This document shows, in pieces, positions 27,738-51,717 of a stretch of DNA of 51,717 nucleotides. The translations under genes and the position numbers were made by a program. Source of the stretch: Planctomycetota bacterium (lineage in GTDB: Bacteria; Planctomycetota; J132). The stretch's first letter is position 1, and the number at the start of each line of letters is the position of its first letter. The notes under the pieces were generated by a model. The model made no database searches. It was not told where the DNA came from and saw only the letters and a program-made list of their open reading frames with translations. The stretch is taken from positions 1-51,717 of the forward strand of contig RFKQ01000075.1 in assembly GCA_003694635.1 (NCBI GenBank). The letters run 5' to 3'.

Positions 27738-27799
27738 CTCTTAACTCTCCCTTACAACAAAAGCCAAACTCCATAAACTCAATCCAATCCCCAACATCC

Positions 27800-29805: not shown

Positions 29806-29815
29806 CTCTCTCCCC

Positions 29816-31087
29816 CTAAAACCTATCCTTGCCAAAATACGGCCGCAACGCCTCCGGCACTCGAATGCTCCCATCCTCCTGCTGGTGATTCTCCCACAAC
29901 GCTATCAACGTCCGACTCACCGCCACCGCCGTACCATTGAGCATATGCACGTACTCCGTCGACCTCCCCCCCCCACGACGAAAGCGTATCTTTAACCGCC
30001 GCGCCTGATAATCCGTGCAGTTCGATGTACTCGTCACCTCCCCGTATTCCCCACCCTCCCCACGACCAGGCATCCAAGCCTCTATGTCAAACTTGCGATA
30101 CGCCGGCGCACCCAATTCCCCCGTGCAAACATCCACCACCCGATACGGTATCTCCAACTTCTGATAAATCTCCTCCTCTATCTCTAAAAAATTCCGATGA
30201 ATCCTCTCCGAATCCTCCGGAGCACAAAACGCAAACATCTCCACCTTCGTAAACTGATGCACCCGATACAAACCCTTCGATACCTTCCCCCCAGCCCCCG
30301 CCTCCGTGCGAAAACAATGGGATACACCACCCAATAAAAGCGGAAGACGATCCCCCTCCAAAATCGTATCCTGGTACATCCCTCCCAACGTAATCTCCGC
30401 CGTACCAATCAAACACAAAGGACTGTTCGCAATCGAATACACCTGTGTCTCCTCCCCACGAGGATTGAACCCAATCCCCTCAAGTATACTCCCATACGCT
30501 AAATCCGGAGTAGCGTAAATCTCAAACCCCCGCTGGCGCAATATCTCCAACGCAAACCGCACCAACGCCAACTCCATCCAAACCCCATCCCCCTTAAGAT
30601 AATAAAACTTCGCACCACTCACCTTCGCCGCACTCCGAAAATCCACCAACCCCTTCTCCTCCCCAAGCTGAACATGATCCTTGGGAGGAAACGAAAATTT
30701 CCTAGGCTCCCCCCACGTCCGAAGCACCCGATTGGCCCCCTCATCCTCCCCCACAGGTACCTCCGGATGCGTCAAATTGGGCAAACGCTGCCACTGCTCC
30801 TCAAACCGCTCCTGCCACCTCGCCAACTCCTCCTTGCAACCGGCCTCCTCCTCCTTCAAACGCCTCCCCTCCTCCACCAAAGGCAAACGCTCCTCCTTCG
30901 ACAGCGATCCCTTCATCCGCTTGGCCACCTGATTGCGCCGCTGCTGAATCTCCTGCAAACGCCGCTGCAACGAAAGCTTCCTCTCATATAGCTCCAAAAG
31001 CTCCGATACGTCCACCTCCACCTTCCTACGGCGACAATTCTCCTGCACCAACTCCCTGTTCTTCTTGACAAACTTAATATCTAACAT
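29816..31087 (-). CDS. serS: Seryl-tRNA synthetase
   Basis: It has the N-terminal coiled-coil arm MLDIKFVKKNRELV and class II motifs (FRTEAGAGGKVSKGLYRVHQFTKVEMF, GTAVAVSRTLIALWENHQ). I chose the ATG at 31087. Confidence 0.92.
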   Translation of the reverse strand: MLDIKFVKKNRELVQENCRRRKVEVDVSELLELYERKLSLQRRLQEIQQRRNQVAKRMKGSLSKEERLPLVEEGRRLKEEEAGCKEELARWQERFEEQWQRLPNLTHPEVPVGEDEGANRVLRTWGEPRKFSFPPKDHVQLGEEKGLVDFRSAAKVSGAKFYYLKGDGVWMELALVRFALEILRQRGFEIYATPDLAYGSILEGIGFNPRGEETQVYSIANSPLCLIGTAEITLGGMYQDTILEGDRLPLLLGGVSHCFRTEAGAGGKVSKGLYRVHQFTKVEMFAFCAPEDSERIHRNFLEIEEEIYQKLEIPYRVVDVCTGELGAPAYRKFDIEAWMPGRGEGGEYGEVTSTSNCTDYQARRLKIRFRRGGGRSTEYVHMLNGTAVAVSRTLIALWENHQQEDGSIRVPEALRPYFGKDRF

Positions 31088-31257
31088 CGCTACCTTTCCA
31101 ATCAAATCCTCCTATACACCAACCAAACCTTAATAAAAAACAAACAAATCGCTCCCTTCTCCAAATCCTCTAAAACCCTAAACCTAAATATTCTACCAAG
31201 CAAAAAAGAAAATTGCAAGTCAACCTCACCCCCAAACCACCTCCAAAATCATAAAAC

Positions 31258-35726: not shown

Positions 35727-37895
35727 CTACTGACGCTTTAACACCACCGCACTATAACCATCCAATACCCACGTGGTACTACTAGGGGCCCAATTGTCAA
35801 AATCATTGCCAGAAGGCACATTCCTCCCATCCCCTAAAAATACCAACTGCGTGTTGTTATAAGGATCCGAATTGCCCAAAACCGCACATTGCGCCTTCCA
35901 ACTACCCGGGGGCAACGTAAACGTAACACCGTAATTGTGCATGTTCAACAATACCACAAAACTGGAACCATAACTCTGATTCTCATCGATCACATAACCC
36001 ACCGCAAGATTCCCCCCCGTATGAACAATATCCGTTCGATAACCACCCCCAGGATCCAACCCCACCCGAAAACCCGGATTGTTCTTGCGCAAATGAACCA
36101 TAAACTGAAAATATTCGTAAAACTCCTGCCGAGTGCTCGCCAAACTCCAATCTATCGCCTGCACATCCTCCTGCTGGCTCTGCTGCTGCGACTTACTCAA
36201 ATCGCGCACAAACTCCTGCCCCTCATAAACCATCGGTATCCCCAACGAAGTCATCAAAAGCGTGATCCCGATCCCCGCCTTGGCCCATGAACCATTGACA
36301 AAATTCCCCACCGTCTGCTCGTCATGACTCTCCAAATAATTCGTCACATCCACCGGGTTCTTGGCCCGGAGAAATCCTACCCCATCATCCACATCCTTGG
36401 AAAAATAAATAGACTGCCGAATCCTAGTCCCCGTGGTGGCATCGTTGAGCTCCCCTAAAAAACGTGTTTTGGCACTCTCCCGATAAAAATCGTTCCACTG
36501 TGAATAACCATTCCCCACCAACCACTTGTGGCGATAGCTGCCCAACCAATTCTCAGATGTCAAGAAAATATTGGGATTAAGTGCGGTAAGCTCCGAACGC
36601 GCAAGCTCTAATGTAGACCTGGAAGTACCTACGATTAAATCAAAACGAAAACCATCTACATTGAATTCCTCCACCCAATAGCGCAAATTGTCCAATACCA
36701 ACTTCTTCGCAAAAACCTTCTCCGCCCCCCCAATCACCCCATCATAACGCTCCCCCTCCGCAATCCAATTCCCCGTCCCCAAAGAAGCCCAATCGTTGCC
36801 ATTTAAGTGAAAATAATACCTCTTCTTGGGATCAATCCAATAGAGAATATTCTGAAGATTGGAAGTGTGCGTAAGCACCACATCCAAAATCACAGCTATG
36901 CCATTTTTGTGAAACTCATCGATCAGCTTTCGCAATTGATAATAACTACTCCCATCCGTCTCATCCGTGGCATAGCCACTCTCCGGAGCAAAAAACAATA
37001 CGGGCAAATAACCCCACGAGTATCCATGAGGATCGCTAGGATTGTCGGTGGTAAACTCATGCACAGGCATAAGCTCCACCGCATTGATCCCAAGATTCTT
37101 TAAATACGGAATCGCATACTCCAATCCAAGATATTTCCCCCTGTACGCAACGGGAAAATTGCTCACCCCCGGGATAGAATTGGAAGAGGCCTTTTTGGTA
37201 AAATCCCCAACGTGAAGCTCATAAATGATCAGATCTTCCGCCTTGGGAGTGAGAAAAGAAGTAGGCACCCAAGGGGACTTCTCTTGCAAAGAAGTGCGCC
37301 GAGGATCAATGATAATCGAATGCCCATCGCTGCGAACATTGGCCCGAGCATAAGGATCCTGCACCACCGTCTGCGCTCCCGTTAAACGAACACCCCGATA
37401 ATCCACCAACCCCTGCCCCGTGTGATCCTCAATGCGAAAACGATAGTACTTCAAACTATAGACGGGAGAAGCCGCCTTGGTCCCCACGTACCATATGCCA
37501 CTCTTCGAAGAGTGCATCGGAAGAATCCGATCCGGCTGATCGTAAGGATCCTGAGCCGAATCGTAAAGGCATAAAATCACCTTGGCCGCATCGGGACAAA
37601 AAAATCGAAACGCCGTCCCATTGAGAGAAGGATCAAACTGAGCACCTAGTTTAACATCCCTAAATTCAGAGTAAGTGGGGGTGGAATCATTGAGAAGATC
37701 AAGCTCCTGTTGGGTAAAAAACAAATCGGTATCATCTGTGGCAAAAGCTACACCAGACGCAAAAGGAACATAACCCGCCGGCGTAGGATCGTAAAGGGGA
37801 ACGTAGCCAGAGGATCCCTTTTGCTCACAGGAAAAGCAAACGAAAACGGTAGACAACAAAAGCAAAAACGAAAGTAAATTTCTAACGGGTCCCAT
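35727..37895 (-). CDS. Secreted GH13 pullulanase/alpha-amylase-family lipoprotein
   Basis: It has the lipobox FVCFSCEQ. GH13 regions present are DVVLTHTS, GFRFDLIVG, LTSENW and YLESHDE. Confidence 0.75.
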   Translation of the reverse strand: MGPVRNLLSFLLLLSTVFVCFSCEQKGSSGYVPLYDPTPAGYVPFASGVAFATDDTDLFFTQQELDLLNDSTPTYSEFRDVKLGAQFDPSLNGTAFRFFCPDAAKVILCLYDSAQDPYDQPDRILPMHSSKSGIWYVGTKAASPVYSLKYYRFRIEDHTGQGLVDYRGVRLTGAQTVVQDPYARANVRSDGHSIIIDPRRTSLQEKSPWVPTSFLTPKAEDLIIYELHVGDFTKKASSNSIPGVSNFPVAYRGKYLGLEYAIPYLKNLGINAVELMPVHEFTTDNPSDPHGYSWGYLPVLFFAPESGYATDETDGSSYYQLRKLIDEFHKNGIAVILDVVLTHTSNLQNILYWIDPKKRYYFHLNGNDWASLGTGNWIAEGERYDGVIGGAEKVFAKKLVLDNLRYWVEEFNVDGFRFDLIVGTSRSTLELARSELTALNPNIFLTSENWLGSYRHKWLVGNGYSQWNDFYRESAKTRFLGELNDATTGTRIRQSIYFSKDVDDGVGFLRAKNPVDVTNYLESHDEQTVGNFVNGSWAKAGIGITLLMTSLGIPMVYEGQEFVRDLSKSQQQSQQEDVQAIDWSLASTRQEFYEYFQFMVHLRKNNPGFRVGLDPGGGYRTDIVHTGGNLAVGYVIDENQSYGSSFVVLLNMHNYGVTFTLPPGSWKAQCAVLGNSDPYNNTQLVFLGDGRNVPSGNDFDNWAPSSTTWVLDGYSAVVLKRQ

Positions 37896-37922
37896 TTCTA
37901 GCCTCCTAGAAAATTTTATCGT

Positions 37923-37952
37923 AGTGTAGCACCAAAAAAACTACCTTGTCAA
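37923..37952 (-). promoter_or_regulatory. Sigma70-like promoter for the pullulanase gene: TTGACA-18 nt-TACACT, followed by AGGAGG 6 nt before the ATG at 37895
   Basis: The minus strand reads cTTGACAaggtagtttttttggtgcTACACTacgataaaattttctAGGAGGctagaaATG. Confidence 0.5.
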
Positions 37953-37977
37953 GAGAAGAAAAAATTTTTTTCCCCAT

Positions 37978-38007
37978 TTGACACAGCGAGCGAAATTGTG
38001 GTATCAT
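37978..38007 (+). promoter_or_regulatory. Sigma70-like promoter TTGACA-18 nt-TATCAT, divergent from the previous one, about 170 nt upstream of the CDS at 38177
   Basis: The + strand reads ccccaTTTGACAcagcgagcgaaattgtggTATCATtgg. Confidence 0.45.
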
Positions 38008-38176
38008 TGGACCGAAAGCAAATTTTTAAAAATTCTGAATTGTAGTGTTGCATCCGACAAAAAACGCTGTAAGATAACCCAAAATTTCTAGTCCTCCTTG
38101 CCCTCCTCCCCGCAGCTAAGCCGCCCAGGGCTAGAATCAATCCTTAAAAATTTTTTTTAAACCCTGGAGCAGTACA

Positions 38177-38779
38177 ATGAAATGGTTGATGGAATACGGC
38201 GATTGGATTGAGGTCGCCTTTAGCCTTGTCTCCCTCCTGACAATGTTTGTGGTCATTTGGCTAAACTATGAGGCCAATAAGCTCGCAGAAAAAGGTGTGG
38301 AAGAGGGAAAACTCATATGGGAACTGGAAAATCGCCCCTACGTCTACTTCCAAATAGATATGGATCTAGGGGCCAATACCATCTCTTTCTGCCTCTACAA
38401 CCGAGGGAAAGGTATTGCCAAAAATATTCGCCTAGAACTCAAAGAAAATCTAACCTGTATCCCCGGACGAGAAGAAATCCCTGTCCAAAAAATCGCAATG
38501 CTCCAAGAAGGCCTCGCTTTCCTAGCCCCAGAGGGAAAATTCCTAGAACTTGTAGGCGATACCCCAACTTTCTTTCGAATCAATAAAGATATCCCCGAAC
38601 TCCATGGAACCATTTTCTACGAAGATGCCGCAGGGAAAAAATACCAAACCCCCGTAAGAGTTAACCTAAAAGCCTTAGGCAAAAGAAGAGAAGTCGTCCC
38701 CGCTGGAATCGACCAAGTGGTTCAAGTCCTAGAAGATATAGAAAGAACCCTGCGAATGCGGCAAATGCGCCGACGCTAA
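38177..38779 (+). CDS. Hypothetical single-pass membrane protein, paralog A
   Basis: It has an N-terminal TM helix and then a beta-rich domain. Blocks NRPYVYFQIDMD..LYNRGKGIAKNIRLEL, LHGTIFYEDAAGKKYQ and VVQVLEDIERTL are shared with the next ORF. Confidence 0.6.
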   Translation: MKWLMEYGDWIEVAFSLVSLLTMFVVIWLNYEANKLAEKGVEEGKLIWELENRPYVYFQIDMDLGANTISFCLYNRGKGIAKNIRLELKENLTCIPGREEIPVQKIAMLQEGLAFLAPEGKFLELVGDTPTFFRINKDIPELHGTIFYEDAAGKKYQTPVRVNLKALGKRREVVPAGIDQVVQVLEDIERTLRMRQMRRR

Positions 38780-38830: not shown

Positions 38831-39403
38831 ATGTGGATTATCTTGGTAAAACTGATCATCACCGCCCTCGTCACCATCGCCACCGTCATCCTGCTGGTCT
38901 TCAACCTCAAAGCAAATCGCCTCACCCGACTCTCCATCCAACAAATGGAAAATGCCCGTAAAGAAGAATTCCGCCCCTACGTCCTCTTCGATATGGAATT
39001 CGATGCCACCCACGTCTTTATGACCCTGCGCAACGTGGGAAAATCCCCCGCCTTCCAAGTCCAACTCCAACTCGATCAAGATCTAAAAGTCTGGAACTCC
39101 CTCGTGGGCGAGGAAATCTATACCCCCAAAGATATGGCCATCACCGATGAAATCGAAATGATCACCCCCGGAAATGAATTTCGAGAATGGGTGGACTTTA
39201 GCGATTTCTTCTTCCGCAACAACGAAAATATCTCCAACCTCTCCGGTAAAGTCACCTACCAAGACGCAGCGGGCAATCCATACCAATTTCTAATCCACCT
39301 AGATATCGAACCCTTCCGACACCGCTATATCTACATTCGAAAGGATATGAAAAGCCTAGTGCAAACCCTCGAACGCATCCGAGACCACATAAAAAAACTC
39401 TAA
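38831..39403 (+). CDS. Hypothetical single-pass membrane protein, paralog B
   Basis: It has an N-terminal TM helix. Blocks FRPYVLFDMEFD..LRNVGKSPAFQVQLQL, LSGKVTYQDAAGNPYQ and LVQTLERIRDHI align with paralog A. Confidence 0.6.
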   Translation: MWIILVKLIITALVTIATVILLVFNLKANRLTRLSIQQMENARKEEFRPYVLFDMEFDATHVFMTLRNVGKSPAFQVQLQLDQDLKVWNSLVGEEIYTPKDMAITDEIEMITPGNEFREWVDFSDFFFRNNENISNLSGKVTYQDAAGNPYQFLIHLDIEPFRHRYIYIRKDMKSLVQTLERIRDHIKKL

Positions 39404-39421
39404 AGCAAACCCTCCTTAAAC

Positions 39422-39880
39422 ATGCTCTGGTACGTAGACCCACCAAAAATCATGGGAAGCTCCCACCCCGACGAATCACAAATCCTAGAGTGCGCCCGGC
39501 AAGGAATACAGACCGTGATCTGCTTGCTCTCCCCCCACCAACCCCTCCGATACTCTCCAGAAAATCTCAAAAAACATGGCATCGCCTGGTACCATATCCA
39601 AATCGAAGACTTCTGCGCACCTACCCTAGAACAATTTCAAAGCTTCTTCCAAATCCTAGACGAACGCCTACCCCACGGAGGCGTACTCTTCCACTGCCAA
39701 GCAGGCTGCGGACGTACGGGTACCATGGCCGCCGCATACTGGATCCGCCAGGGACTCTCCGCTCCACAAGCCATAAACAAAGTGCGCCAAAGCAACCCCC
39801 ACGCTGTGGAAACCCAAGAGCAAATGCAAAGCCTAAAAGACCTCGAAAAACAACTCCAAAATCCACAAAAAGAGAAATAA
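39422..39880 (+). CDS. Dual-specificity (Cys-based, PTP-superfamily) protein phosphatase
   Basis: It has the active-site P-loop HCQAGCGRTG (HCxxGxxR[ST]) and an upstream acidic residue in IQIEDFCAP. Confidence 0.8.
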   Translation: MLWYVDPPKIMGSSHPDESQILECARQGIQTVICLLSPHQPLRYSPENLKKHGIAWYHIQIEDFCAPTLEQFQSFFQILDERLPHGGVLFHCQAGCGRTGTMAAAYWIRQGLSAPQAINKVRQSNPHAVETQEQMQSLKDLEKQLQNPQKEK

Positions 39881-40027
39881 CCCCCCTCATCTCCATTCCC
39901 CAACATCTCACCAACTCCAACCCTCTAAACCCGGAACCTCAACCTAACCTAAATCTTTGAAAGTGCCAAAAAAACCTTTCAAAAACAACCGATTCCCCCC
40001 CCTTCACAACGCAAGGATCACCCCACC

Positions 40028-43000
40028 ATGAAAACAAAAAAATTCTCCAAACTCGCCCTGCTCAACCGGGGAGAACCCGCAGTGCGCTTTCTCCAAGCAA
40101 TCCAAGAAGTCAACCGCCTGGAAAACGCCAATATCCAAACCTATTTCCTCTACACCGATCCAGATAAAAACTCCCTTGCCATCCATCGATGCGATGTACC
40201 CGTCTATCTAGGACCTCCCTTCTTCCAAAACGGAACCGAAAGAAAAAGCAGCTACCTCAACTACTCAAAAATCCGCCAAATTCTCCTTGACTATAAAATC
40301 GACGGCGTCTGGGTCGGCTGGGGATTTGCCGCCGAAGACCCCAACTTCGCCGCCCTCTGCGAAGAACTAGGCGTAACGTTCATCGGACCATCCTCCCAAA
40401 CCATGCGCATGCTAGGGGATAAAATCCTCTCGAAAAAATTGGCCGAACAAGCTAAAATCCCCGTTATCCCCTGGAGCGGAGGCGTTGTCCAAACACTCGA
40501 AGAAGCCATGGCCACAGCCAAAAAACTCGGCTACCCCCTCGCCCTCAAAGCCTCCGCCGGGGGAGGAGGACGAGGTATCCGAAAAGTACAAAAAGAAAAA
40601 GAACTCAAAGAACTCTTCCACTCCGCTCAACAAGAAGCCCTAAAAGCCTTCGGATGCGGAGATCTGTTTCTAGAAGCCCTCATCCCTAGCCCACGCCACA
40701 TCGAAGTGCAAATCGCCGCCGACCTCTACGGCAACTGCCAAGCCCTCGGAGTGCGAGACTGCTCCGTGCAAAGACGACACCAAAAAATTATCGAAGAAAC
40801 CCCCTCCCCCGTCCTGTCTCCAAAACTAGAAAAACAAGTCTGCCAATACGCCGTAAAACTAGCCAAAACCGCCAAATACCACAACCTCGGCACCGTGGAA
40901 TTCCTCTTCAAAGACGGAAAATTCTACTTCATGGAAATGAATACCCGCCTGCAAGTCGAACACCCCATCACAGAACTTACCTACGGACTGGACCTAGTTA
41001 AACTCCAAATCTCCATCGCAAGAGGAAAAAAACTACCTGCCCCCTTCCCCTCTCCCAAAGGACACGCCATCGAAGTCCGGCTCAACGCCGAAGACCCTGA
41101 ACAAGGCTTCGCACCCGCCCCCGGCAAAGTCCTCCACTACTCCCCCCCCACAGGTATCGGTATTCGAGTGGATACCGGACTCCGTATCGGAGATAGTATC
41201 CCCCAAGAATTTGACTCCATGATCGCCAAAATCATCGCCTACGGAGCAAACCGAAACGAAGCTATCGCACGCCTAGATAGAGCACTCCGAGAAATGAACA
41301 TGATCATCGAAGGAGGAACCACCAACAAAGGCTTCCTGTTAGAACTTATCCGCAACCGAGCCTTTGTCCAAGCTAAAATCACCACCGATTGGCTGGATAA
41401 ACGCCAAAAAAGAAGCCCCATCTTCCCCAAAAAAAACACCCAGCTCGCCCTCCTCTGCACCGGCATCGAAATCTATGAACGACGCTTCGATAAAATCAAA
41501 GAACGCTTCTTCCAAACAGCCTTCCGAGGACGCCCCAATCTCGACTTCCCCCAACACCCCCAAGAAATCACCCTCCAACACGAAAAAAAAACCTATAAGT
41601 TTTCCATCGCTAAAATCGATCTCTATACCTACCGCATCTACTCTACAACCAAACAATGGACGGATGTAATCTACCGAAAAGTCAATCCCTTCCAAGCCGA
41701 ACTTCTCTATCTCAACAAGAGGTATACAATCTTCCACTCCTGGCAAAAACACCTTGACTACGTGGAGGTGGACGGCATCCACTACCTCATCCGTGAAGAT
41801 ACCGGCGGCGCCATCACCTCCCCCATGCCCGCACTCGTCCTCAACATAGCCGTCCAAGAAGGACAACGTATCAAAGCAGGCGACAAAGTAGCCGTGCTCG
41901 AAGCCATGAAAATGGAAATGCCTATTTTCGCCTCAGAGGACGGCGTGGTTAAAAAAGTTATGATTCAGCCAGGCTCCCAAATCGCCGCCGGCGAAGCTAT
42001 CCTACTCCTAGAAACCACAGGAAAAGAAAACTCCCCAAACACAACCCTGGAACTAAAACCTCTCCACTCCCTAAACGACCTTAGCCATGTCTCCACCATC
42101 CTAGAAGAACTCAAACACCTCTTCCTAGGATACGATTTCCCCGAATCCTACGTAAACACCGCCCTAAAAAAACTCATAAACTCGAATTTACCACCCCAAC
42201 CACAAACGGAAATCCTTGCCAAATTTAAAGAAATCCTCAAAATCTATACAAGCCTAGAAGACCTCTTCCAAACCTCCCCCCAAAACGCACAAAGAAGGCA
42301 CTTTTCCAGCAAAGAATACCTCTACCTCTACCTCCACTGGTTCTCCGGAGAAGGTGAAGGACTGCCCGAGGAATTCTTAACCAAACTTAAAAACGCCCTG
42401 AGCTGCTACAAAATCGAAAGCCTAAAACCCCAAGATAGACTAAAAAACGCAATTTTACGAATATTTTTGTCTAACACTCGCTTAAAACTCAAAAACCAAG
42501 TCCTAAAATCCTTGCTAAAACTCCTCCTCGAACACCCCCACTGGCTCCAACCAGCGGATCGAAGGGAGTTTCGCCTCCTGATCACAAATGTGGCAGAAAT
42601 CGCTCAAAAAAGCTTCCCCGAACTCTATAACATCTGCCGACGAGTCCTCTACGCCCTATTCGACGGCCGCTATATGGAAAGAAGAAGGCAGAAAATCCTC
42701 TACAAAGTGGACCTGATGCTGGATAAATTGGCAAACTCCCCATCAGACTCCGAACGCGCCTCCCAAATGGCCTGGCTGCTCAACGTGCCCATTTCCCTAA
42801 AAAAATACCTCTCTCAAAAAATAATCAACTCCCCACAACTGGCCCCCCATATTCTCGAAATCTTTGTTCGAAGGCTCTATCAAAAACACTATCTCAAAGA
42901 GCTCTACACCATAACCTCCAAGAAACTCTCCCAGTGTGTGGCCCAGATCAAAGAGGATTCCCAGCCAATTCACCTCACCTTTCTACACAAAAACTACCGG

Positions 43001-45544
43001 CAATTCTCCGAAGCTTGCCGCGATTTGAGCGATCTGCTCACCCGCCTAAACGCAAAACAGGCCATCGGAGATATTCTCCTAACCTCTCGCACCAAAATCT
43101 CCCGCAATCAAGAACTGGAGTTCCTCAACACCTCCCTCCAATCCTTCTCGCCTCCCCCTTCCCTGCAACGCCTCTCTGTCCTGATCTATTCCCCCAAAAA
43201 CCAAGATATCCACATCTACACCTTCCGGCACAACAGCTCGAAAAAAAGCTGGCAAGAAGTGGAATACCTGCGCGATATCCATCCCACCCTCAATCAGAAG
43301 TTAGAGCTCTGGCGATTTGGGCATTTTCAATTGGAGCGTCTTCCTTCTAAAGATGAGATTTACTTGTTTAAAGGAATCTCCAAAATCCACGCTCACGACC
43401 AGCGCCTCTTCGCCATCGCCCAAATTAGAGACTTTGCCCCCGTGCGAAATGAGCGGGGCGAAATCGTCCAACTTCCCCACCTAGAATACATAATCTTAGA
43501 AGCCCTGGACGCCATTCGAGAAGAATTAGCCCACCGCAAGGACCCCAAAACCCTGAACTGGAATCGTCTGATCTTCTATCTCTTGCCCCCCATCCTCATC
43601 TCTAAAAAAAATATCGAAGCCCTCGCCAGACGCCTCTGGCCCCTCGCCAAAGGACTGGATCTGGAAAAAGTGGTCTTCCGTATCAAACTCCGAGAAAAAC
43701 CCGAAGAAATTCCCCAAGATACCATCGTCCAAATCAAACCCTCCGGACAGGATATGGTCGTGGTGTACAAAATCCCCGATAATTCCCTGATCAAGCCGAT
43801 GAACGACTACTCTATGAAAGTTCTATGGGCCAAACAACGGGGATTGGTTTACGCCTATGAACTGGTAAAAATGCTCACCCCCCAAGCATCTACGGGAGAA
43901 TTGCCCCCCGGCCAGTTCCAAGAATACGACCTAGTGGATGGAGTTTTCCAACCAGTCCAGCGGGAGTACGGCCAAAATCACGCCAATGTGGTGGTAGGAA
44001 CCATCTGCAACTTCACCTCCAAATATCCAGAGGGAATGACACGGGTACTCATTGTAGGGGATTGTACCCGCTCTATGGGGAGTTTGGCCGAGCCGGAATG
44101 TTCGAGAATTCTAGCTGCTCTTGATCTGGCAGAAGAAAAGAGACTGCCGGTGGAGTGGTACGCGGTCTCCTCCGGAGCGAAAATTTCTATGGATAGCGGG
44201 ACGGAAAACCTAGACTGGACAGCTAAAGTCCTAAAACGCATCATTGAATTCACCCAAAAAGGCGGCATCATCAACATTATTGTGGACGCCATCAATGTAG
44301 GCGCCCAGTCGTATTGGAACGCGGAAGCCACCATGCTGATGCACACAAAAGGCTGCCTGATTATGACTCCAAATGGAGCAATGGTGCTGACGGGAAAAAA
44401 CGCCCTCGATTACTCCGGAGGAGTGTCCGCCGAAGATAACCTCGGAATCGGCGGCTACGAACGAATTATGGGCCCCAATGCCCAAGCCCACTATTACGCC
44501 CAAAATTTGATGGAGGCGTACAAAATCCTCTTTGAATTCTACGACTACACCTACATTTTGCCCGGGGAAAAACTCCCCCGCCTACGAAAAACCACCGATC
44601 CATGGGATAGAGATATCTGCCGCTCCCCCTACCGGGATCGAGAAGGAGGCGACTTTCAAACAGTAGGAGATATTTTCTCCCAGAAAAAAAATGCCGAGCG
44701 CAAAAAGCCCTTCTCCATCCGCGAAGTAATGCGAGCCCTACAAGATACAGATGCTAGCGCCTTAGAACGCTGGGCCGCGATGAAAGACGGAGAACTCGCT
44801 GTGGTACTGGATACCCACATTGGCGGCGTACCCGCCTGTATGATCGGGATTGAGAGCAAACCACTCGAACGATTCGGCTATGTCCCAAGCTACGGGCCTG
44901 AAGTGTGGACGGGAGGAACCCTCTTTCCCAAGTCCTCCAAAAAAGTAGCCCGGGCCATCAACAGCGCCAGCGGCAATCGAGCGGTGGTGGTGCTCGCCAA
45001 CCTTTCCGGATTCGACGGCTCACCGGAATCCCTGCGCAAGCTCCAACTGGAATACGGCGCAGAAATCGGCCGCGCCGTGGTCAACTACCAAGGCCCAGCC
45101 TTGATCTTCTGCGTCATCTCCCGCTACCACGGAGGTGCTTACGTGGTGTTTTCCCGCTTTCTCAACCCCTACTTTACCTCCCTTGCGCTGGAGGGCTCGT
45201 TCGCTTCCGTTATCGGCGGAGCGCCGGCGGCCTACGTGGTATTCCCACGCAAAGTAAAGGCGCTTGTGATGCAAAACAAACGCCTAAATCAACTCAAAGA
45301 ACGCTGGAAAAAAGCGTCTAATAAACAACGAGCCATACTGCGACAAAAGTACGATGAGCTGTACCAACAACTCTACCAAAAAGCACTCCGCCAAGTGGCC
45401 GAAGAATTCGATCAGATCCATACCGTGGAACGGGCAAAAAAAGTAGGCTCCCTAGACCGAATTTTTGCCCCAAAAAATCTAAGAAAATGCATCATTGAAA
45501 TTCTACATCAGAAAATCTCCAACTACCAAAAAAACACAAAATAA
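40028..45544 (+). CDS. Single-polypeptide multidomain acyl-CoA (acetyl-CoA-type) carboxylase: biotin carboxylase - BCCP - central domain - carboxyltransferase
   Basis: The BC ATP-grasp domain has GYPLALKASAGGGGRGIRKV and MEMNTRLQVEHPITE. The biotinyl motif is EAMKMEM. The CT domain has VGDCTRSMGSLAEPE, SSGAKI and LANLSGFDGS. Confidence 0.85.
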   Translation: MKTKKFSKLALLNRGEPAVRFLQAIQEVNRLENANIQTYFLYTDPDKNSLAIHRCDVPVYLGPPFFQNGTERKSSYLNYSKIRQILLDYKIDGVWVGWGFAAEDPNFAALCEELGVTFIGPSSQTMRMLGDKILSKKLAEQAKIPVIPWSGGVVQTLEEAMATAKKLGYPLALKASAGGGGRGIRKVQKEKELKELFHSAQQEALKAFGCGDLFLEALIPSPRHIEVQIAADLYGNCQALGVRDCSVQRRHQKIIEETPSPVLSPKLEKQVCQYAVKLAKTAKYHNLGTVEFLFKDGKFYFMEMNTRLQVEHPITELTYGLDLVKLQISIARGKKLPAPFPSPKGHAIEVRLNAEDPEQGFAPAPGKVLHYSPPTGIGIRVDTGLRIGDSIPQEFDSMIAKIIAYGANRNEAIARLDRALREMNMIIEGGTTNKGFLLELIRNRAFVQAKITTDWLDKRQKRSPIFPKKNTQLALLCTGIEIYERRFDKIKERFFQTAFRGRPNLDFPQHPQEITLQHEKKTYKFSIAKIDLYTYRIYSTTKQWTDVIYRKVNPFQAELLYLNKRYTIFHSWQKHLDYVEVDGIHYLIREDTGGAITSPMPALVLNIAVQEGQRIKAGDKVAVLEAMKMEMPIFASEDGVVKKVMIQPGSQIAAGEAILLLETTGKENSPNTTLELKPLHSLNDLSHVSTILEELKHLFLGYDFPESYVNTALKKLINSNLPPQPQTEILAKFKEILKIYTSLEDLFQTSPQNAQRRHFSSKEYLYLYLHWFSGEGEGLPEEFLTKLKNALSCYKIESLKPQDRLKNAILRIFLSNTRLKLKNQVLKSLLKLLLEHPHWLQPADRREFRLLITNVAEIAQKSFPELYNICRRVLYALFDGRYMERRRQKILYKVDLMLDKLANSPSDSERASQMAWLLNVPISLKKYLSQKIINSPQLAPHILEIFVRRLYQKHYLKELYTITSKKLSQCVAQIKEDSQPIHLTFLHKNYRQFSEACRDLSDLLTRLNAKQAIGDILLTSRTKISRNQELEFLNTSLQSFSPPPSLQRLSVLIYSPKNQDIHIYTFRHNSSKKSWQEVEYLRDIHPTLNQKLELWRFGHFQLERLPSKDEIYLFKGISKIHAHDQRLFAIAQIRDFAPVRNERGEIVQLPHLEYIILEALDAIREELAHRKDPKTLNWNRLIFYLLPPILISKKNIEALARRLWPLAKGLDLEKVVFRIKLREKPEEIPQDTIVQIKPSGQDMVVVYKIPDNSLIKPMNDYSMKVLWAKQRGLVYAYELVKMLTPQASTGELPPGQFQEYDLVDGVFQPVQREYGQNHANVVVGTICNFTSKYPEGMTRVLIVGDCTRSMGSLAEPECSRILAALDLAEEKRLPVEWYAVSSGAKISMDSGTENLDWTAKVLKRIIEFTQKGGIINIIVDAINVGAQSYWNAEATMLMHTKGCLIMTPNGAMVLTGKNALDYSGGVSAEDNLGIGGYERIMGPNAQAHYYAQNLMEAYKILFEFYDYTYILPGEKLPRLRKTTDPWDRDICRSPYRDREGGDFQTVGDIFSQKKNAERKKPFSIREVMRALQDTDASALERWAAMKDGELAVVLDTHIGGVPACMIGIESKPLERFGYVPSYGPEVWTGGTLFPKSSKKVARAINSASGNRAVVVLANLSGFDGSPESLRKLQLEYGAEIGRAVVNYQGPALIFCVISRYHGGAYVVFSRFLNPYFTSLALEGSFASVIGGAPAAYVVFPRKVKALVMQNKRLNQLKERWKKASNKQRAILRQKYDELYQQLYQKALRQVAEEFDQIHTVERAKKVGSLDRIFAPKNLRKCIIEILHQKISNYQKNTK

Positions 45545-45600
45545 AAACTTCTCCCCTCCCCTCGTAAATGATGTAAATTTTACTCACTAACCATTGGGCT

Positions 45601-46407
45601 TTGAAAAAGGGAAAAAACTTGAGAATAGAAAAAGCCAAAAAAACGAAAATCAAACAAATATTTAACCTCCTCGCCTCCAAATACGGACACTACGCCCAGC
45701 CGGAAGGGCAGAGTATCTTAGAGCATTTGATTTATTATATCCTTTCCTACGATTCCTCCATCACATGCGCCAAAAAGGCTTTTAAAGCCTTTGTCCAAGG
45801 CGAAGAATTCGTGGACTGGAATGAGGTCCGAGTTGCCTCGAACAGAAATTTAAAAGAATTTCTTCAAGAATTTAGATGTCAACCTTCCTCGGGGGAGAAA
45901 ATAAAAAAACTTCTTTCCAACGTCTTTGAAAAATTTCATAAACTGGACCTAGAATTCCTTCGCCAAAAGCCTATAGAAGAAGCAAAAAAAATTCTCAGCT
46001 CTCTTCCCGCCTTAGAAAAACATATCATCCCCTGGATTTTAGCAATCACCCACCAAGGAAACCAATTCCCCATCGATCAAAAAACTCACCTCATCCTAGC
46101 ACGCCTTGGAGTGATACCCCCAAAAACCGAAGACACTGAATTGGATCAAATCCTACAAGCTAGCCTGGATAAAGACCACATTCTCCCGTTTCACCGAAGC
46201 ATCGTAGAACACAGCAAAAAAACTTGCCTAGAACAAGGGGAGATGAAATGCAAACGCTGCCTCTTGCGCAAACACTGCCTCTACTTCCACCTAACAGAGG
46301 GAGAACACCCTCCACAACAAACAAGCCTAGAGGTCATAGAACAGCGCTCCAAATCCCCCTCGCATTCGAAAAATAAAATAAAAAAACGAAAAGTTAGCCA
46401 AAAATAG
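45601..46407 (+). CDS. HhH/endonuclease III-related protein with C-terminal Cys cluster
   Basis: It shows EndoIII-like helical organisation and the cluster C-x7-C-x2-C-x5-C (CLEQGEMKCKRCLLRKHC), which resembles the EndoIII [4Fe-4S] loop. The start codon is TTG, so the start is uncertain. Confidence 0.5.
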   Translation: MKKGKNLRIEKAKKTKIKQIFNLLASKYGHYAQPEGQSILEHLIYYILSYDSSITCAKKAFKAFVQGEEFVDWNEVRVASNRNLKEFLQEFRCQPSSGEKIKKLLSNVFEKFHKLDLEFLRQKPIEEAKKILSSLPALEKHIIPWILAITHQGNQFPIDQKTHLILARLGVIPPKTEDTELDQILQASLDKDHILPFHRSIVEHSKKTCLEQGEMKCKRCLLRKHCLYFHLTEGEHPPQQTSLEVIEQRSKSPSHSKNKIKKRKVSQK

Positions 46408-46417
46408 GAGCAAAAGA

Positions 46418-47869
46418 ATGGCGAGATTCACACTACCAATTTGGCTAATCTTGCCAACTTTTTTGTTGGGATGCCGCAATCCAATTTTACTTTTTTCCTC
46501 CAATCCCGCCCCATCAACAAAAGTAAGCATCCCTGCCTATGCCGCTCTTACCTGCGCCATTCGACACAGCGAAGAGGGCAAACTCCAAGAAGCAGCCAAA
46601 TGGTTGGAAATCGCTCGAAAAGCAGACCCTAGCTCAGTGGAAATCCTGAAGTGGAGCGGAGATATTCTTATCCAATTGGGGCATACCCAAGAAGGTCTAG
46701 ACTGGCTGCATCAAGCCTCAGAACTGGCCAAAAAAAACTACAACCAACACCTGGATATCGCCCAAATCTACCAAAAGCATGGCTATCTATTCCAAGCCCT
46801 ACAAGAATACTACCGTACCCTTACCATTCGTCCCAATCTAACCTATCCAACGAAGGAAATCCTAAAACTACTCCACCTTCTCCACCAACCCCAAATCGCC
46901 ATCCCCCTACTAGAACGCCTGATTCCGCTGACCCATGAAAAACGAAGGCTGCAAGTGTACCTAGCGCTCTCCCAAAACTTTCGCGAAGCCCAAAAACCTG
47001 AGGTAGCCCTGCAAGTTCTGCGCAACCTGGATCTGCAATACCCAAAATCTGCCGAGTTAAAACTCGAATTTATCCGCAACCTCTACGCCCTCCAACGCTA
47101 TACCTACGCCTTGAAATACGTCCAAAATGCCCTCATCTTCCACCCCCATTATCCCTATTTTTACTACTATATGGGCTTGATCTTGAAAAAATTGAAAAAA
47201 AATAAAAGCGCCCAGCTGGTCTTCCAACGCCTGATCGAAATCTTAAAATCCCCTCCACCCTCTCAGAAAAAATTTAAATCTTTTAAACTCTCCCAACGAT
47301 TTAACCTTCTAGGAAAAGTCTATTTTCAATTGGGTAGAGAGCAAGAAGCGGTTAAATGCCTCTTTCAATCCCTCTCCATCGATAAATCCAACCGGAACGC
47401 CATTTTGATCCTTACCCAACATCTCCTGAAAAAAGGTCAGTACAAATTGGTGGTAGCTTTGCTAGAAAATTACCTCTCAGCGGTGCCCCAAGATAAGGAA
47501 ATCAAAGGCGAATTGGCCTACATTTACAGCAAAATTCAACTCTCTCTCGATAAAGCCATTCAGTACTCCCTGGAAGCCTTAGAAGTCTACCCTACCAATT
47601 CCCGATATCTTTATGCGCTAGGGTGGGCGTACTTCCAAAAATCCCGTTTTGAAATGGCGCGCAGCTTTTTAAATCAAGCGGTGGAGATCGGAGAAAATCT
47701 AGAAGCAAAGTTGGCATTGGGCTACCTAAATTTCTGCCTAGGGGATTTAGCCCGCTCCAAAAAATGGTACCAGAGCGCCCAAAAACAACTGCCCCAAAAC
47801 CCCTACATTCAAAATATGCTCCAACAAATCCAAGCCCTAGAATATGAGTTTCGAAAACGAGTGAAATAA
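46418..47869 (+). CDS. TPR-repeat lipoprotein
   Basis: The SD GGAG lies 8 nt upstream. It has the lipobox PTFLLGCRN and many 34-aa TPR-like repeats (A..Y/W......G....A...Y..AL...P). Confidence 0.7.
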   Translation: MARFTLPIWLILPTFLLGCRNPILLFSSNPAPSTKVSIPAYAALTCAIRHSEEGKLQEAAKWLEIARKADPSSVEILKWSGDILIQLGHTQEGLDWLHQASELAKKNYNQHLDIAQIYQKHGYLFQALQEYYRTLTIRPNLTYPTKEILKLLHLLHQPQIAIPLLERLIPLTHEKRRLQVYLALSQNFREAQKPEVALQVLRNLDLQYPKSAELKLEFIRNLYALQRYTYALKYVQNALIFHPHYPYFYYYMGLILKKLKKNKSAQLVFQRLIEILKSPPPSQKKFKSFKLSQRFNLLGKVYFQLGREQEAVKCLFQSLSIDKSNRNAILILTQHLLKKGQYKLVVALLENYLSAVPQDKEIKGELAYIYSKIQLSLDKAIQYSLEALEVYPTNSRYLYALGWAYFQKSRFEMARSFLNQAVEIGENLEAKLALGYLNFCLGDLARSKKWYQSAQKQLPQNPYIQNMLQQIQALEYEFRKRVK

Positions 47870-47941
47870 CTCTATTTAAACCTCTTCCTAAAACTCTCTG
47901 TCATTTTCCTAAAAGATTTTCCCACTTCAGATCTTAACAAA

Positions 47942-48616
47942 ATGCCCAAACTTTCCCCCTCAAAAAGGAAAGGTAAAGTGAAAACCACAAAAACCATCCT
48001 CTATATCACAGAGATTTTTTACAGCATCCAAGGTGAATCCAACGATGCGGGATATCCTTGCGTGTTTGTGCGTCTGAGTGGATGCGATCTGCGCTGCCAT
48101 TGGTGCGATACAGAATACTCTTTCCGCCGCGGCAAAAAAATGGAGTTGGAAGAGATTCTAAGCGAAATTCAACGATACCCCGTACGCCGTGTGGAGATCA
48201 CAGGCGGAGAACCTCTCCTGCAAAAGGGCGTGTATCCGCTTCTCAAAGCGCTCATCAAAAAAGGGTACCGCACCTTATTGGAAACTGGAGGTCATCGGGA
48301 TATCGCAGACGTTCCCAGAGGCGTGATCAAGGTGTTGGACATAAAGTGCCCCGATAGCGGTATGGCTGAGAGAATGCATTGGCAAAACCTCGCCTATCTC
48401 TCCGAAAAAGACGTTATCAAATTTGTCATCGCTAGCAGAAAAGATTACGAGTACGCAAAAAAAATTATCCAAGAATACTCTCTAAACACAGAGCAGGTCC
48501 ATCTCTCCCCTGTGGTCGCCTCTCTCTCCCCCCATCGTTTGGCAAAGTGGATGTTGGAGGATGCGCTGGAGGTACGCCTGCAGCCGCAATTGCATAAATG
48601 GCTAGAAGTGCCTTAA
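47942..48616 (+). CDS. queE: 7-carboxy-7-deazaguanine synthase (radical SAM)
   Basis: It has EIFYSIQGES, the radical-SAM cluster GCDLRCHWCDT and ITGGEPLLQ. Confidence 0.85.
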   Translation: MPKLSPSKRKGKVKTTKTILYITEIFYSIQGESNDAGYPCVFVRLSGCDLRCHWCDTEYSFRRGKKMELEEILSEIQRYPVRRVEITGGEPLLQKGVYPLLKALIKKGYRTLLETGGHRDIADVPRGVIKVLDIKCPDSGMAERMHWQNLAYLSEKDVIKFVIASRKDYEYAKKIIQEYSLNTEQVHLSPVVASLSPHRLAKWMLEDALEVRLQPQLHKWLEVP

Positions 48617-48672
48617 AGTTTTTGAGAAGTCTGAAAAACTTTTTCCCCTACCAACCCCTCCCAAAAACTTTA
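48615..48672. repeat. Head-to-head pair of REP-like leader motifs filling the whole 53-bp spacer between convergent queE and res; 11-nt terminal inverted repeat TAAAGTTTTTG / CAAAAACTTTA includes both stop codons
   Basis: The sequence reads TAAagtttttgagaagtctgaaaaactttttcccctaccaacccctcccaaaaacTTTA. The left half resembles the unit at 1-190, and the right half is the reverse complement of AAAGTTTTTGGGAGGGGTTGGTAGGGG (compare 6568-6597). Confidence 0.75.
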
Positions 48673-51663
48673 GCCATCCTCCTTCAAACTTTTGATAGGC
48701 ACATCGCTCCACTCTTTGGCAAGCACATACTGGACCGAACCGGCGCCTGAGCCAGCAATCGCCTTAAAATGCTTTTTCCCGCAAACAATCTTGGCCTCCT
48801 CCTTGTGCCGAAGATCTTTGACATGAACGGCCCCTTTGTTCTCGATGACAAAATACAGCCTCTCGCCCTCATTGGTATCCACCAGAACAGCCCAATCTGG
48901 AGTGTAGTTGCCGAGGGGAGTTGGTATCTTAAACCAAGTAGGCAACTTGGCGTAAAGCCTCACTTCCTCCTGCTTTTCCATCTGTTCGGCAAACTCCCTC
49001 TCGACCTTCGAATCGTACATCACCTGCTCATACACCGATTTGTTTGTCTTCTCCAGCAGGTTTTTTAAGTAGCCGGAAAGCTCCTCCTGCTCAAACAGCT
49101 CCTGGGCGTAATATTCGCCTATTCGCCGGTACTGAACGCCATCCACCAACGCTAGTTGTTTGGCTTTGTTGATGACCTCAGCGGCTAGATCGAGAAAGGC
49201 TTGCGGATTTTGCTTGAAATCGCCCAACCGGCCGCTTTCCTGAACAATCCTTAGCAGCGTGCGGCGGGTAAGTTGGGTGCGATCTTGGAGTTCGGTGAGC
49301 AAATCCGGAAGCTCGATATCCATTTCGTGGAGCGTAATGGTAGCCGCCCCCCCTTTTTCCTCCGCTTCCACGCCGGCTTTACCAATGGCGATATCGGCCT
49401 TTCGCCATTGCAAGCGGGTTCTGGTGATCTGAGGCGCGTCCTGAATGGCCCGGACGCAATCGGCGATCAACTTTTCATTGTCAAACTCAACGCGATAGGT
49501 GGTCTTGTGCTTGATACGGTCCCAAAGTGCCTTGAAATCTTCGCTCAAAAAGATTTCCTTGCGTACTCTAATCTGGCGGCGCTCATCGGCATTTTTAACC
49601 TCTAGCCGTCCAGCAGCTTTTTTCAATATGGCAATGATGGCCTCTCTTTGGGGTTCAAATTCCGGCGGCAGTTCCAAGCTACCTTCCTTGAGCGCAGTGC
49701 GGAGCAAATCTTGCACCCGTTCCTTGCTATCCAAATACCCTTTCTCTTGGAGGAAAATCCACAGCTTCTCGGATCGCTCTGCGCCCAAGGGTTGCTCTAC
49801 GCCATTGTTTACGGCTACGGGGATAGCTGCAAACTGGTGCTTTTCCACCACGCCAAAGCGAACACCGGTATCCTCCTCTAGCTCCCTTTGCAGGTTTCTA
49901 GCAAAGTCCTCGTAGCGCTCATTGGCAATCACCGTTAGCGTATTGATCTCATGGCCGTGTACCCGGTGGCCTGACTGATCCACGCATAGGCGTAGACCGC
50001 GCCCGATGGACTGTCGCCGCTCGCGTTCGGTACGGATATCCCGAAGGGTACAAATCTGGAAGACGTTGGGATTGTCCCAACCTTCACGCAGCGCTGAGTG
50101 GGAAAAAATGAACTTCAAAGGCTCCTTCAAATCCAGCAGCCTCTCCTTATCCCGCATGATCAGCTGGTAGGTGTCCTCATCCGCTTTGGTGTTGCCCCGG
50201 GTATCCTTGAACATTTCCACCGTTTTGCCCCTCACCTTTTTGCGGTCGATGGAGAAATAGCCGTTGTGGACCTGTTCGGCAAGCTGTTCCACGTCTTCAT
50301 GTGCAAACATTTCCTTGTATTTTTCTAACCTAGCCACGCGGACAAATTCCTCTTCAAAAATCCTTGCATACTCGCCCTGGATGGGATTGCCTTCCTGATC
50401 GTACTGGCGATATTTGGCCACCTCATCGATGAAAAACAACGACAGCACCTTGATCCCCCGAGGGTGCAGGCGGCGCTCTTTGTCCAGATGCTCCTTGATG
50501 GTGCGGCGAATCAACTGGCGGGCTAGCGCGTTCTTATCCACATCGCCATAGGCCTGCCCGGGCTGTAGGAAGACCTCGCCGCCAGGATAGCGAAGCTCCA
50601 TATACGGATGATCCTTCGCTACGGATATTTCGCCAATTCTGTGGTTGGCATAAAGACCGCGGCCAGTGGTTTGCTCCAGATCATCGCCATCGTAGACCCT
50701 CACTTCCTTGCGCTTGACGCCCGAGCGCGTTTGGACGTCCAATTCCACCACCGCCGAGATGGTGTTTCTCCGAATTTGCACCTTAATCAGCCGAACGTAG
50801 GGCTTGTTATGGCCCGATTCCACGGTCGCAGAGGCTACCTCAATTTGCTTGACCAGTTTGCGCTCGTAAGCGTCCACAGCATCCAAGCGGTAAACCATGT
50901 GGTACTTGTGCACGTGGGTGGCGGAATAGCGAAGGGTACAGAGCGGATGCATCGCATCCAGCGCAGCTTTGCCCTTGCCCTTGAGGCCTCCGTCCACGCT
51001 TTGTGGCTCGTCCACAATCAAGATCGGCCGAGTGGCCCGAATGAGCTCGATGGGTTTCTCGCCGCCGGTTTTCTCGCTATCCTTGTAGAGGTTGTTCACA
51101 TCCTTCTTGTTGATAGCCCCCACGGTCACCACCATGATTTGAACGGTGGAGCTGATGGCGAAATTGCGCACCTGCCCAAGCTTGGCCGAGTCGTAGATAA
51201 AGTATTCAAAGGGCACGCCGGCGTAGAGGCTTTTGAAGTGATCTTCCGTGATTTGCAGGGTTTTGTACACCCCTTCCTTAATGGCAATGGAGGGTACCAC
51301 AATCACAAACTTGGTGAAGCCGTAGCGCTTGTTGAGCTCGAAAATGGTGCGCAAATAAACGTAGGTTTTGCCCGTTCCGGTCTCCATCTCCACCGTGAAG
51401 TCGCCGGAGCGCAACGCGGAGTCTATGGGTAGTCCGTTGCGGAGCTGAACCGCTTGCAGATTTTTCAAAATCTCATCGTCCAGCAGGGTAAGTCGATTGC
51501 CGATGCCCACCGCCTCTCCAAAGCCTAGTTCCATTTGGTCATCCAGGCCACTTTGCAGAACGGTAAACTCGGTTCGACAGATTTCTTGGCCCTGAAATAG
51601 GTCGCAGACAGCTTCAATGGCCTGCAATTGAAAGTCAAGATTTGGCTCAAAATGGAGTTTCAT
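48670..51663 (-). CDS. res: Type III restriction-modification Res subunit (SF2 helicase plus C-terminal PD-(D/E)xK nuclease)
   Basis: The N-terminus is MKLHFEPNLDFQLQAIEAVCDLFQGQ. Helicase motif I is ETGTGKTY, motif II is IVDEPQS, and motif VI-like is QSIGRGLR. The C-terminal nuclease-like region is YTPDWAVLV...YFVIENKG. I chose the ATG at 51663, with AAGGAGG 5 nt upstream. Confidence 0.8.
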   Translation of the reverse strand: MKLHFEPNLDFQLQAIEAVCDLFQGQEICRTEFTVLQSGLDDQMELGFGEAVGIGNRLTLLDDEILKNLQAVQLRNGLPIDSALRSGDFTVEMETGTGKTYVYLRTIFELNKRYGFTKFVIVVPSIAIKEGVYKTLQITEDHFKSLYAGVPFEYFIYDSAKLGQVRNFAISSTVQIMVVTVGAINKKDVNNLYKDSEKTGGEKPIELIRATRPILIVDEPQSVDGGLKGKGKAALDAMHPLCTLRYSATHVHKYHMVYRLDAVDAYERKLVKQIEVASATVESGHNKPYVRLIKVQIRRNTISAVVELDVQTRSGVKRKEVRVYDGDDLEQTTGRGLYANHRIGEISVAKDHPYMELRYPGGEVFLQPGQAYGDVDKNALARQLIRRTIKEHLDKERRLHPRGIKVLSLFFIDEVAKYRQYDQEGNPIQGEYARIFEEEFVRVARLEKYKEMFAHEDVEQLAEQVHNGYFSIDRKKVRGKTVEMFKDTRGNTKADEDTYQLIMRDKERLLDLKEPLKFIFSHSALREGWDNPNVFQICTLRDIRTERERRQSIGRGLRLCVDQSGHRVHGHEINTLTVIANERYEDFARNLQRELEEDTGVRFGVVEKHQFAAIPVAVNNGVEQPLGAERSEKLWIFLQEKGYLDSKERVQDLLRTALKEGSLELPPEFEPQREAIIAILKKAAGRLEVKNADERRQIRVRKEIFLSEDFKALWDRIKHKTTYRVEFDNEKLIADCVRAIQDAPQITRTRLQWRKADIAIGKAGVEAEEKGGAATITLHEMDIELPDLLTELQDRTQLTRRTLLRIVQESGRLGDFKQNPQAFLDLAAEVINKAKQLALVDGVQYRRIGEYYAQELFEQEELSGYLKNLLEKTNKSVYEQVMYDSKVEREFAEQMEKQEEVRLYAKLPTWFKIPTPLGNYTPDWAVLVDTNEGERLYFVIENKGAVHVKDLRHKEEAKIVCGKKHFKAIAGSGAGSVQYVLAKEWSDVPIKSLKEDG

Positions 51664-51673
51664 GGCCGCCTCC

Positions 51674-51717
51674 TTAAATGCTACGCACGTTCGCAATGCC
51701 CGCCTGTTTCAAAATCG
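51674..51717 (-). CDS. 3' end of an upstream minus-strand gene (possibly the Mod methyltransferase partner), truncated by the window edge
   Basis: An open frame ...ILKQAGIANVRSI* has its TAA stop embedded in the res Shine-Dalgarno region. Only 13 codons are visible, so the product call is pure context inference. Confidence 0.3.
   Translation of the reverse strand, partial: ILKQAGIANVRSI

Follow-up and report, generated by a model that had tools for sequence, protein, structure and literature searches.

The carboxylase gene and the step within it

The stretch of DNA analysed here (hereafter the window; 51,717 nucleotides) is contig RFKQ01000075.1 of the assembly GCA_003694635.1 from a Planctomycetota bacterium, and the gene in question, located at 40028–45544 on the + strand, encodes a fused acyl/acetyl-CoA carboxylase of 1838 amino acids (aa), as identified from the list of open reading frames (ORFs), Pfam matches and full-length homologs. 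Pfam places the biotin carboxylase (BC) at aa 6–457, the biotinyl domain at 596–660, the acetyl-CoA carboxylase (ACC) central region at 1046–1201 and the carboxyltransferase at 1335–1799, i.e., BC, biotin carboxyl carrier protein (BCCP), central region and carboxyltransferase are found on one polypeptide, as in other fused multi-domain biotin-dependent acyl-CoA carboxylases. More than 100 full-length homologs (1850–1930 aa) could be aligned from end to end, and together with the ordered domains this indicates that the gene is intact across a compositional transition that falls at aa ~800–950, in the non-catalytic central region. The initial annotation, made from the sequence alone, had described the protein as continuous across this transition, and the domain order and the homologs bear this out.

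The nearest homologs of the carboxylase are the proteins P0002 (56% identity) and P0121 (58% over the C-terminal part), followed by others at ~46%. P0121 comes from a metagenome-assembled genome labelled Planctomycetota and belongs to the same clade as P0002 (61% identity between the two). When a collection of species-representative genomes was scanned with the whole carboxylase, only biotin carboxylase domains with 42–46% identity were found, and the best match of hemC, another gene of the window, had 52% identity; the lineage carrying this contig is poorly sampled. The presence of serS, hemA and hemC besides the carboxylase gene identifies the DNA as chromosomal or at least essential. An identical carboxylase protein is encoded on a Logan contig of the run SRR7905022, which was obtained from sediment of the source pool of Jinata hot spring (Shikinejima, Japan; PMC12501874, PMC10762115). 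The temperature of this pool is 60+ °C. Strain variants were also looked up in other samples, with SRR7905022 as the only run retrieved. Only one site of the carboxylase gene differs between the Logan assembly and the window, namely 43813, with T vs. C at a synonymous third position.

The third-position composition of the carboxylase gene was computed in 100-codon windows and is not uniform. G amounts to 3–10% of third positions until ~42.3 kb, where the GC skew at third positions (GC3 skew) is −0.66 to −0.88 with a brief excursion to −0.52 near 41.7 kb, and to 14–19% over most of 42.4–43.6 kb; at 43.8–44.2 kb it reaches 24–29% (GC3 skew −0.16 to +0.07), and at 44.3–45.0 kb the GC3 skew is back at about −0.4 to −0.5. 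According to the initial annotation, the gene uses almost only A- and C-ending synonymous codons up to about 42.9 kb. This holds for purine-ending codons until ~42.4 kb (40028–42432: CAA/CAG 38/2, AAA/AAG 66/2, GAA/GAG 56/3, pooled A:G 160:7), but less so for the pyrimidine-ending two-fold codons (C:T 116:39 in the same part) and not for GAT and GAC, which are used about evenly (16/15). The G- and T-ending codons that had been noticed between 42.9 and 43.9 kb are indeed present (A:G 55:18 and C:T 38:30 in 42866–43900), followed by A:G ratios of 15:8 at 43901–44320 and 32:8 at 44321–45240, and the earlier count of G19/C10 on the + strand at 44101–44160 is exact.

Change points were located by a multinomial analysis that took in every third position of the contig except those of Met and Trp codons, with the bases given as on the + strand. 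A contig-wide cut was placed at 42841 with a log-likelihood gain of 60, compared with 10.6 for the 99th percentile of the maximum gain in permutations. With the carboxylase gene alone, the best step in G+T was at 42556 (support interval 42433–42865, gain 29.4), where the fraction rises from 0.16 to 0.31. The change point thus lies, as in a mosaic gene, within an intact reading frame, and the drop of the bias inside the carboxylase gene is real. Upstream of the support interval the 5' part (40028–42432) is extremely skewed and internally homogeneous at a G+T of 0.16. A minor cut follows at 45241 (gain 15.5), with A increasing (0.24 to 0.36) and C decreasing (0.43 to 0.34). The initial annotation had a drift back to A/C-rich composition from about 45.25 kb; the rise of A agrees with this, but C declines, G+T stays at 0.31–0.32 on both sides and the extreme state is not regained.

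In addition, there is a local unskewed peak at 44026–44215 (G+T 0.55 vs. 0.30), which includes 44101–44160, is only marginally significant (scan-corrected p ~0.01) and sits in the most conserved stretch of the protein, at the N-terminal edge of the carboxyltransferase region. This position is where homology-dependent conversion would be most feasible, and a paralog of the carboxylase or carboxyltransferase gene, located elsewhere in this genome and oriented the other way relative to replication, could have overwritten part of the 3' half by gene conversion, with 44.0–44.2 kb most affected. We consider such an event improbable, as the moderately skewed state extends for 2.5 kb past the carboxylase gene into unrelated genes and the peak itself is of marginal significance.

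Strand asymmetry and compositional tracts of the contig

The initial annotation framed the change as one of codon usage, but the effect is a property of the DNA strand and is independent of gene orientation. At four-fold degenerate sites of 9.8–42.4 kb, all read on the + strand, genes on the + strand have A 0.25, C 0.57, G 0.08 and T 0.10, and genes on the − strand have A 0.29, C 0.51, G 0.11 and T 0.09. The latter are genuine genes, encoding a protein kinase (E = 1e−103), a seryl-tRNA synthetase and glycogen-type enzymes. Since the + strand is A+C-rich in either gene orientation, codon endings are opposite between + and − strand genes. This is the hallmark of strand-specific mutation pressure, and codon preference was rejected as the cause. 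Intergenic DNA is skewed in the same direction (GC skew −0.46), and the GC3 skew of ~−0.8 compares with ~0 at first and second codon positions, so that the asymmetry has the same sign for either gene orientation and is strongest at synonymous and intergenic sites, as expected for a strand asymmetry. By the usual sign convention, in which the leading strand is G+T-rich, the + strand of this contig, which contains neither origin nor terminus, would be the lagging strand.

The size of the asymmetry was compared with 79 loci of ~20 kb from diverse bacteria. In 5-kb windows of the contig, GC skews as strong as −0.52 occur, with G+T fractions up to 0.18 away from 0.5; the per-locus maxima of the reference loci have 0.12 as their median and 0.25 as their 95th percentile, and reach at most 0.46 for the GC skew and 0.09 for the G+T departure. 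At the level of genes, and following the convention of Joesch-Cohen et al. (PMC6042203), the skews of the contig are leadGC 0.41, leadTA 0.18, lagGC 0.38 and lagTA 0.20. The corresponding values for Borrelia burgdorferi are 0.258, 0.022, 0.015 and 0.211, and the Borreliaceae were called clear outliers among 7738 genomes (PMC6042203). The asymmetry is thus about twice as strong as in Borrelia and exceptional for a bacterial chromosome, and this extreme skew of the contig is more remarkable than the step in the carboxylase gene. The relatives of the carboxylase, P0002 and P0121, are themselves unskewed. A bisulfite-like or damage artefact was rejected, as the proteins are intact and both C and A are enriched.

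A stringent segmentation divides the contig into four domains: unskewed (191–9479), strongly skewed (9482–42838, G+T 0.19), moderately skewed (42841–48043, 0.32) and unskewed again (48046–51694, 0.48). Towards the right end, the third-position G+T fraction therefore climbs a staircase of 0.17 (38.3–42.8 kb), 0.31 (42.8–48.0 kb) and 0.48 (48.0–51.7 kb). Composition is homogeneous (ratio of observed to binomial variance ~1) within each of three tracts, namely the 5' part of the carboxylase gene, the moderate tract and the unskewed tract on the right, which makes the right third of the contig a staircase and not a mix of small patches. Beyond the carboxylase gene the moderate state runs on to 48043; this tract of half-strength skew (42866–48043, G+T 0.31) comprises the 3' half of the carboxylase gene, a downstream gene for a 268-aa protein, for which no Pfam family was matched, and a TPR gene. 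The unskewed tract behind it (48046–51694, G+T 0.48) holds most of a radical-SAM gene (47942–48616, + strand) and a restriction-type helicase-endonuclease gene with ResIII/DEAD and RE_endonuc domains (48670–51696, − strand), which is intact in the window. The Logan assembly carries a C>A difference (+ strand) at 49920, and there the helicase-endonuclease is called as two products of 393 and 475 aa with the break at 49920. We read this variant as a putative premature stop, and intact and truncated alleles may both occur in the population.

The strongly skewed domain (9482–42838) contains serS, kinase genes and genes for glycogen enzymes, with four-fold frequencies of A 0.25–0.29, C 0.51–0.57, G 0.08–0.11 and T 0.09–0.10; under strong skew, G makes up ~5% of third positions. 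In its core (19199–31288), the GC3 skew of the + strand is ~−0.8 in either gene orientation. Two Ser/Thr protein kinase genes (9786–11510 and 20404–22833) lie on opposite strands, the larger one with two kinase domains, and metallophosphoesterase genes are found near the kinase genes at 11572–12585 and 14349–15062, all of them fully skewed. A finer segmentation adds sub-tracts within this domain, two of which (12474–14138 and 36435–38329) have a relaxed depletion of G (0.19–0.24) with the depletion of T kept (0.09–0.10), indicating that the components of the bias are separable.

The finer segmentation also adds an extreme tract at 191–575 inside hemC (191–1144, − strand), in which G falls to 0.02 and C reaches 0.52. 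The 5' part of hemC is unskewed and the change to its extreme 3' part at ~575/578 is a second step within a gene. The unskewed domain that begins there (578–9479) includes part of hemC, hemA and polysaccharide genes, and at 6.4–7.7 kb the skew is reversed, the third-position G+T on the + strand being 0.62–0.74 at 6390–7670. This reversed stretch lies in the second of two tandem genes for 354-aa NAD-dependent epimerases/dehydratases, which share 31% identity with each other. The initial annotation had suggested, from hemC and the carboxylase together, a mosaic of tracts with different mutational histories. Tracts delimited by significant, contig-wide cuts (~575, 9482, 42841 and 48046) are confirmed, but different origins of these tracts find no support in the available sequences.

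The steps could be artificial if two co-occurring related populations, one skewed and one unskewed, had been joined by the assembler at conserved stretches, and it is true that this is a metagenome contig and that steps lie in or beside conserved genes (hemC and the carboxylase). However, an independent Logan contig of the same run corresponds to 39138–51346 of the window with three mismatches and no gap, and a second one covers ~6661–12565, so that the steps at 9.48, 42.4–42.9 and 48.05 kb are each spanned in two independent assemblies of the run. This reproduction of the joins argues against mis-assembly. Moreover, no second carboxylase of this clade was found in the protein collection, and orthologs that differ so strongly at synonymous sites would rarely share long exact k-mers. 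We therefore give a chimera only a slight chance.

Selection on synonymous sites in the 3' half of the carboxylase gene, whether through preferred codons at conserved residues, an antisense gene (43978–44346, − strand) or RNA structure, is very improbable and largely refuted. The 122-aa antisense ORF does coincide with the unskewed peak; however, overlapping ORFs share third positions with the sense frame and become longer wherever A-ending sense codons are fewer, and neither this ORF nor the other overlapping ones matched a family, so that all were dismissed as by-products of the composition. Codon selection at conserved residues was excluded, because the biotin carboxylase domain, though equal to the carboxyltransferase in conservation, is fully skewed. 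The Rfam scan of the window was empty, and the tract covers 5 kb and three genes.

Possible explanations: a recombined tract or regional mutation pressure

Our best guess, held with somewhat less than even confidence, is that the 3' half of the carboxylase gene belongs to a younger, recombined tract that flanks a restriction island and is partly re-equilibrating to the skew. The chromosome would be under an exceptionally strong, replication-type, strand-specific mutation pressure, probably deamination on the complementary strand enhanced by temperature; a loss of G and T from the + strand is what the deamination of C and A on the complementary strand, while single-stranded, would be expected to produce. 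In DNA that has resided in this chromosome for long, the synonymous sites would have been pushed almost to fixation of A and C on the + strand, and the step in the carboxylase gene would be the left edge of a ~5.5-kb tract (to 48.0 kb) that has been exposed to the pressure for less time. We infer that this tract arrived by homologous recombination with a related genome that was less skewed or differently oriented, through one crossover in the carboxylase gene, hitchhiking with the adjacent unskewed island of the restriction enzyme, and that it has since re-equilibrated about half-way. If it started at 0.48 and tends to an equilibrium of 0.16, the intermediate tract would be ~0.75 relaxation times old.

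Several observations speak in favour of recombination. The staircase of homogeneous tracts is how discrete tracts of different residence time would look, and among the genes of the unskewed tracts are a restriction-type res gene and polysaccharide genes, classes that are typically subject to exchange. In E. coli, recombination is raised in the DNA flanking the rfb and hsd loci. The second intragenic step, in hemC, and the stretch of reversed skew at 6.4–7.7 kb also favour exchange, since a merely weaker local bias gives no reversed skew.

A number of other results weigh against this explanation. At the carboxylase transition, a ramp over as much as 2 kb describes the data as well as a sharp step does. 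The initial annotation had proposed that the two segments of the gene be compared in their placement and best matches, and neither comparison revealed a difference: P0002 was closest in 500/500 bootstraps for aa 1–800, 951–1838 and 1151–1450 alike, and the per-segment identities to 59 homologs had the same ranking throughout with P0002 always nearest, although with relatives that are only 56–62% identical the placement test has low power. The discordant placement by which a mosaic gene is recognised is thus missing between the carboxylase segments. A separate search with aa 939–1838 retrieved nothing above 58% identity, the best hit being P0121 from the same clade, and turned up neither a donor nor a closer relative for the 3' part. 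Among the unskewed and moderate tracts, five proteins are effectively alone in a cluster look-up at 90% identity, with no closer relative; the reversed-skew epimerase had a best identity of 62% in a representative library, with no sign of recent transfer; and in the hemC search the unskewed half was no closer to other lineages than expected, nor closer than the skewed half. The composition is atypical at 48.0–51.7 and 0.6–9.5 kb, but the marks of mobility that would make these tracts islands are absent from their edges: the scans found no tRNA genes or meaningful repeats, and there was no integrase among the Pfam hits. As a donor of the same species, subject to the same bias, should be just as skewed at this locus, a less skewed or differently oriented donor has to be assumed, and the skew itself is known from one 51.7-kb contig of this organism. 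Judging from these searches, there is no positive evidence for a foreign origin of the tracts, and a donor, if there was one, would have to be sought among unsampled members of this deep lineage.

Segment-wise tests of relative rates, three-taxon branches and direction of replacement were negative or of low power. With the window protein, P0002 and P0121 as the three taxa, the branch of the window protein was 1.4–2.2 times as long as the others in all segments except aa 1291–1430, the least skewed one, where the ratio was 0.9 based on ~35 differences and not significant; this branch is thus not clearly shorter in the 3' part of the carboxylase, which again does not help the case for a recombined tract. 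At differing residues, first and second positions are shifted towards A+C by −0.108 ± 0.050 in the 5' part and −0.059 ± 0.047 in the 3' part, values that are indistinguishable. At identical residues, the third-position G+T of the window's carboxylase gene is 0.16 in the 5' part vs. 0.39 and 0.46 in the two relatives, and 0.41 in aa 1291–1430 vs. 0.36 and 0.50.

The same results can be accommodated without any exchange of DNA if the strength of strand-asymmetric mutation pressure differs between neighbouring regions of the chromosome, which is the main rival and a possibility that we take seriously but regard as doubtful. Both carboxylase segments have the same placement and roughly proportional divergence, the genes of the unskewed tracts branch as deeply as those of the skewed tracts, the moderate tract is homogeneous and holds + strand genes only, and the ramp does as well as the step. 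One possible cause would be transcription: replication, in its inferred direction, would meet the transcription of the operon's 3' half head-on, and transcription or R-loops may expose the + strand and counteract the bias. Another would be a locally different fork polarity or repair. However, extreme skew is found in the + strand genes upstream and in the 5' half of the carboxylase gene itself, and the unskewed 48.0–51.7 kb consists mostly of a − strand gene, in which transcription should reinforce the bias and not cancel it. The reversed skew at 6.4–7.7 kb is beyond the reach of a weaker bias, promoter-like sites occur at chance frequency, and the terminator scan was likewise empty or at chance level. 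To our knowledge there is no mechanism for such stepwise changes within one transcription unit, and we are not aware of a description of kilobase-scale regional control of mutational strand bias in bacteria. That mutation pressure changes in steps within one gene or operon without exchange, for instance via encounters of replication with transcription or local repair, seems unlikely to us.

If the steps are the junctions of a recombined tract, a strand bias that is both fast and nearly saturated would constitute a built-in clock. One genome of an uncultured thermophile would then be enough to tell how long each tract has resided in it and how far recombination extends around defence and polysaccharide loci. 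If they are not, the strand bias of mutation would change at the scale of kilobases, which would affect the inference of replication and of gene histories from skews. In either case the strand asymmetry is unusually strong, and it accords with the idea that thermophile genomes are shaped by heat-driven deamination of single-stranded DNA.

Relation to known systems

The phenomenon belongs to known kinds, namely strand compositional asymmetry and compositional tracts within genomes. As in Borrelia burgdorferi, one strand is G+T-rich and the other A+C-rich in either gene orientation, most strongly at synonymous sites, a likeness that is seen on one contig without origin or terminus. The contig differs from Borrelia in the roughly twofold size of the asymmetry, in that the GC and TA components are both strong in both classes of genes, and in that the skew is interrupted by unskewed tracts.

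A comparably near-saturated depletion of G is found on the light strand of vertebrate mitochondrial DNA, where the asymmetry is attributed to deamination of the single strand. We know of no organellar counterpart to the mosaic interruptions of the skew. The contig, with G at ~5% of third positions, also resembles the mitogenome of Galdieria sulphuraria in the near-saturated depletion of G at free sites of one strand; its GC skew is 0.74, a value tentatively linked to heat-promoted deamination of single-stranded DNA by the authors of that genome (PMC4316638). The G-rich strand of Galdieria is, however, also A-rich (a purine skew), whereas in the contig G goes with T, and in contrast to organelles we are dealing with a fragment of a bacterial chromosome that carries housekeeping genes on both strands.

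Genes that are mosaic through homologous recombination are well known from the penicillin-binding proteins of Streptococcus and Neisseria. The carboxylase gene is similar in that an intact gene changes its character internally, here with a tract that adjoins a restriction-enzyme locus, as a second tract of the contig adjoins polysaccharide genes. In the penicillin-binding proteins, donors are known and the segments differ in divergence and phylogeny, while those of the carboxylase differ in composition only and have the same placement. The reading of atypical tracts as younger residents that drift towards the mutational equilibrium of the host corresponds to the amelioration of Lawrence and Ochman, with the differences that strand skew and not G+C content would be drifting, and that the 'foreign' genes are no closer to sampled lineages than the 'native' ones.

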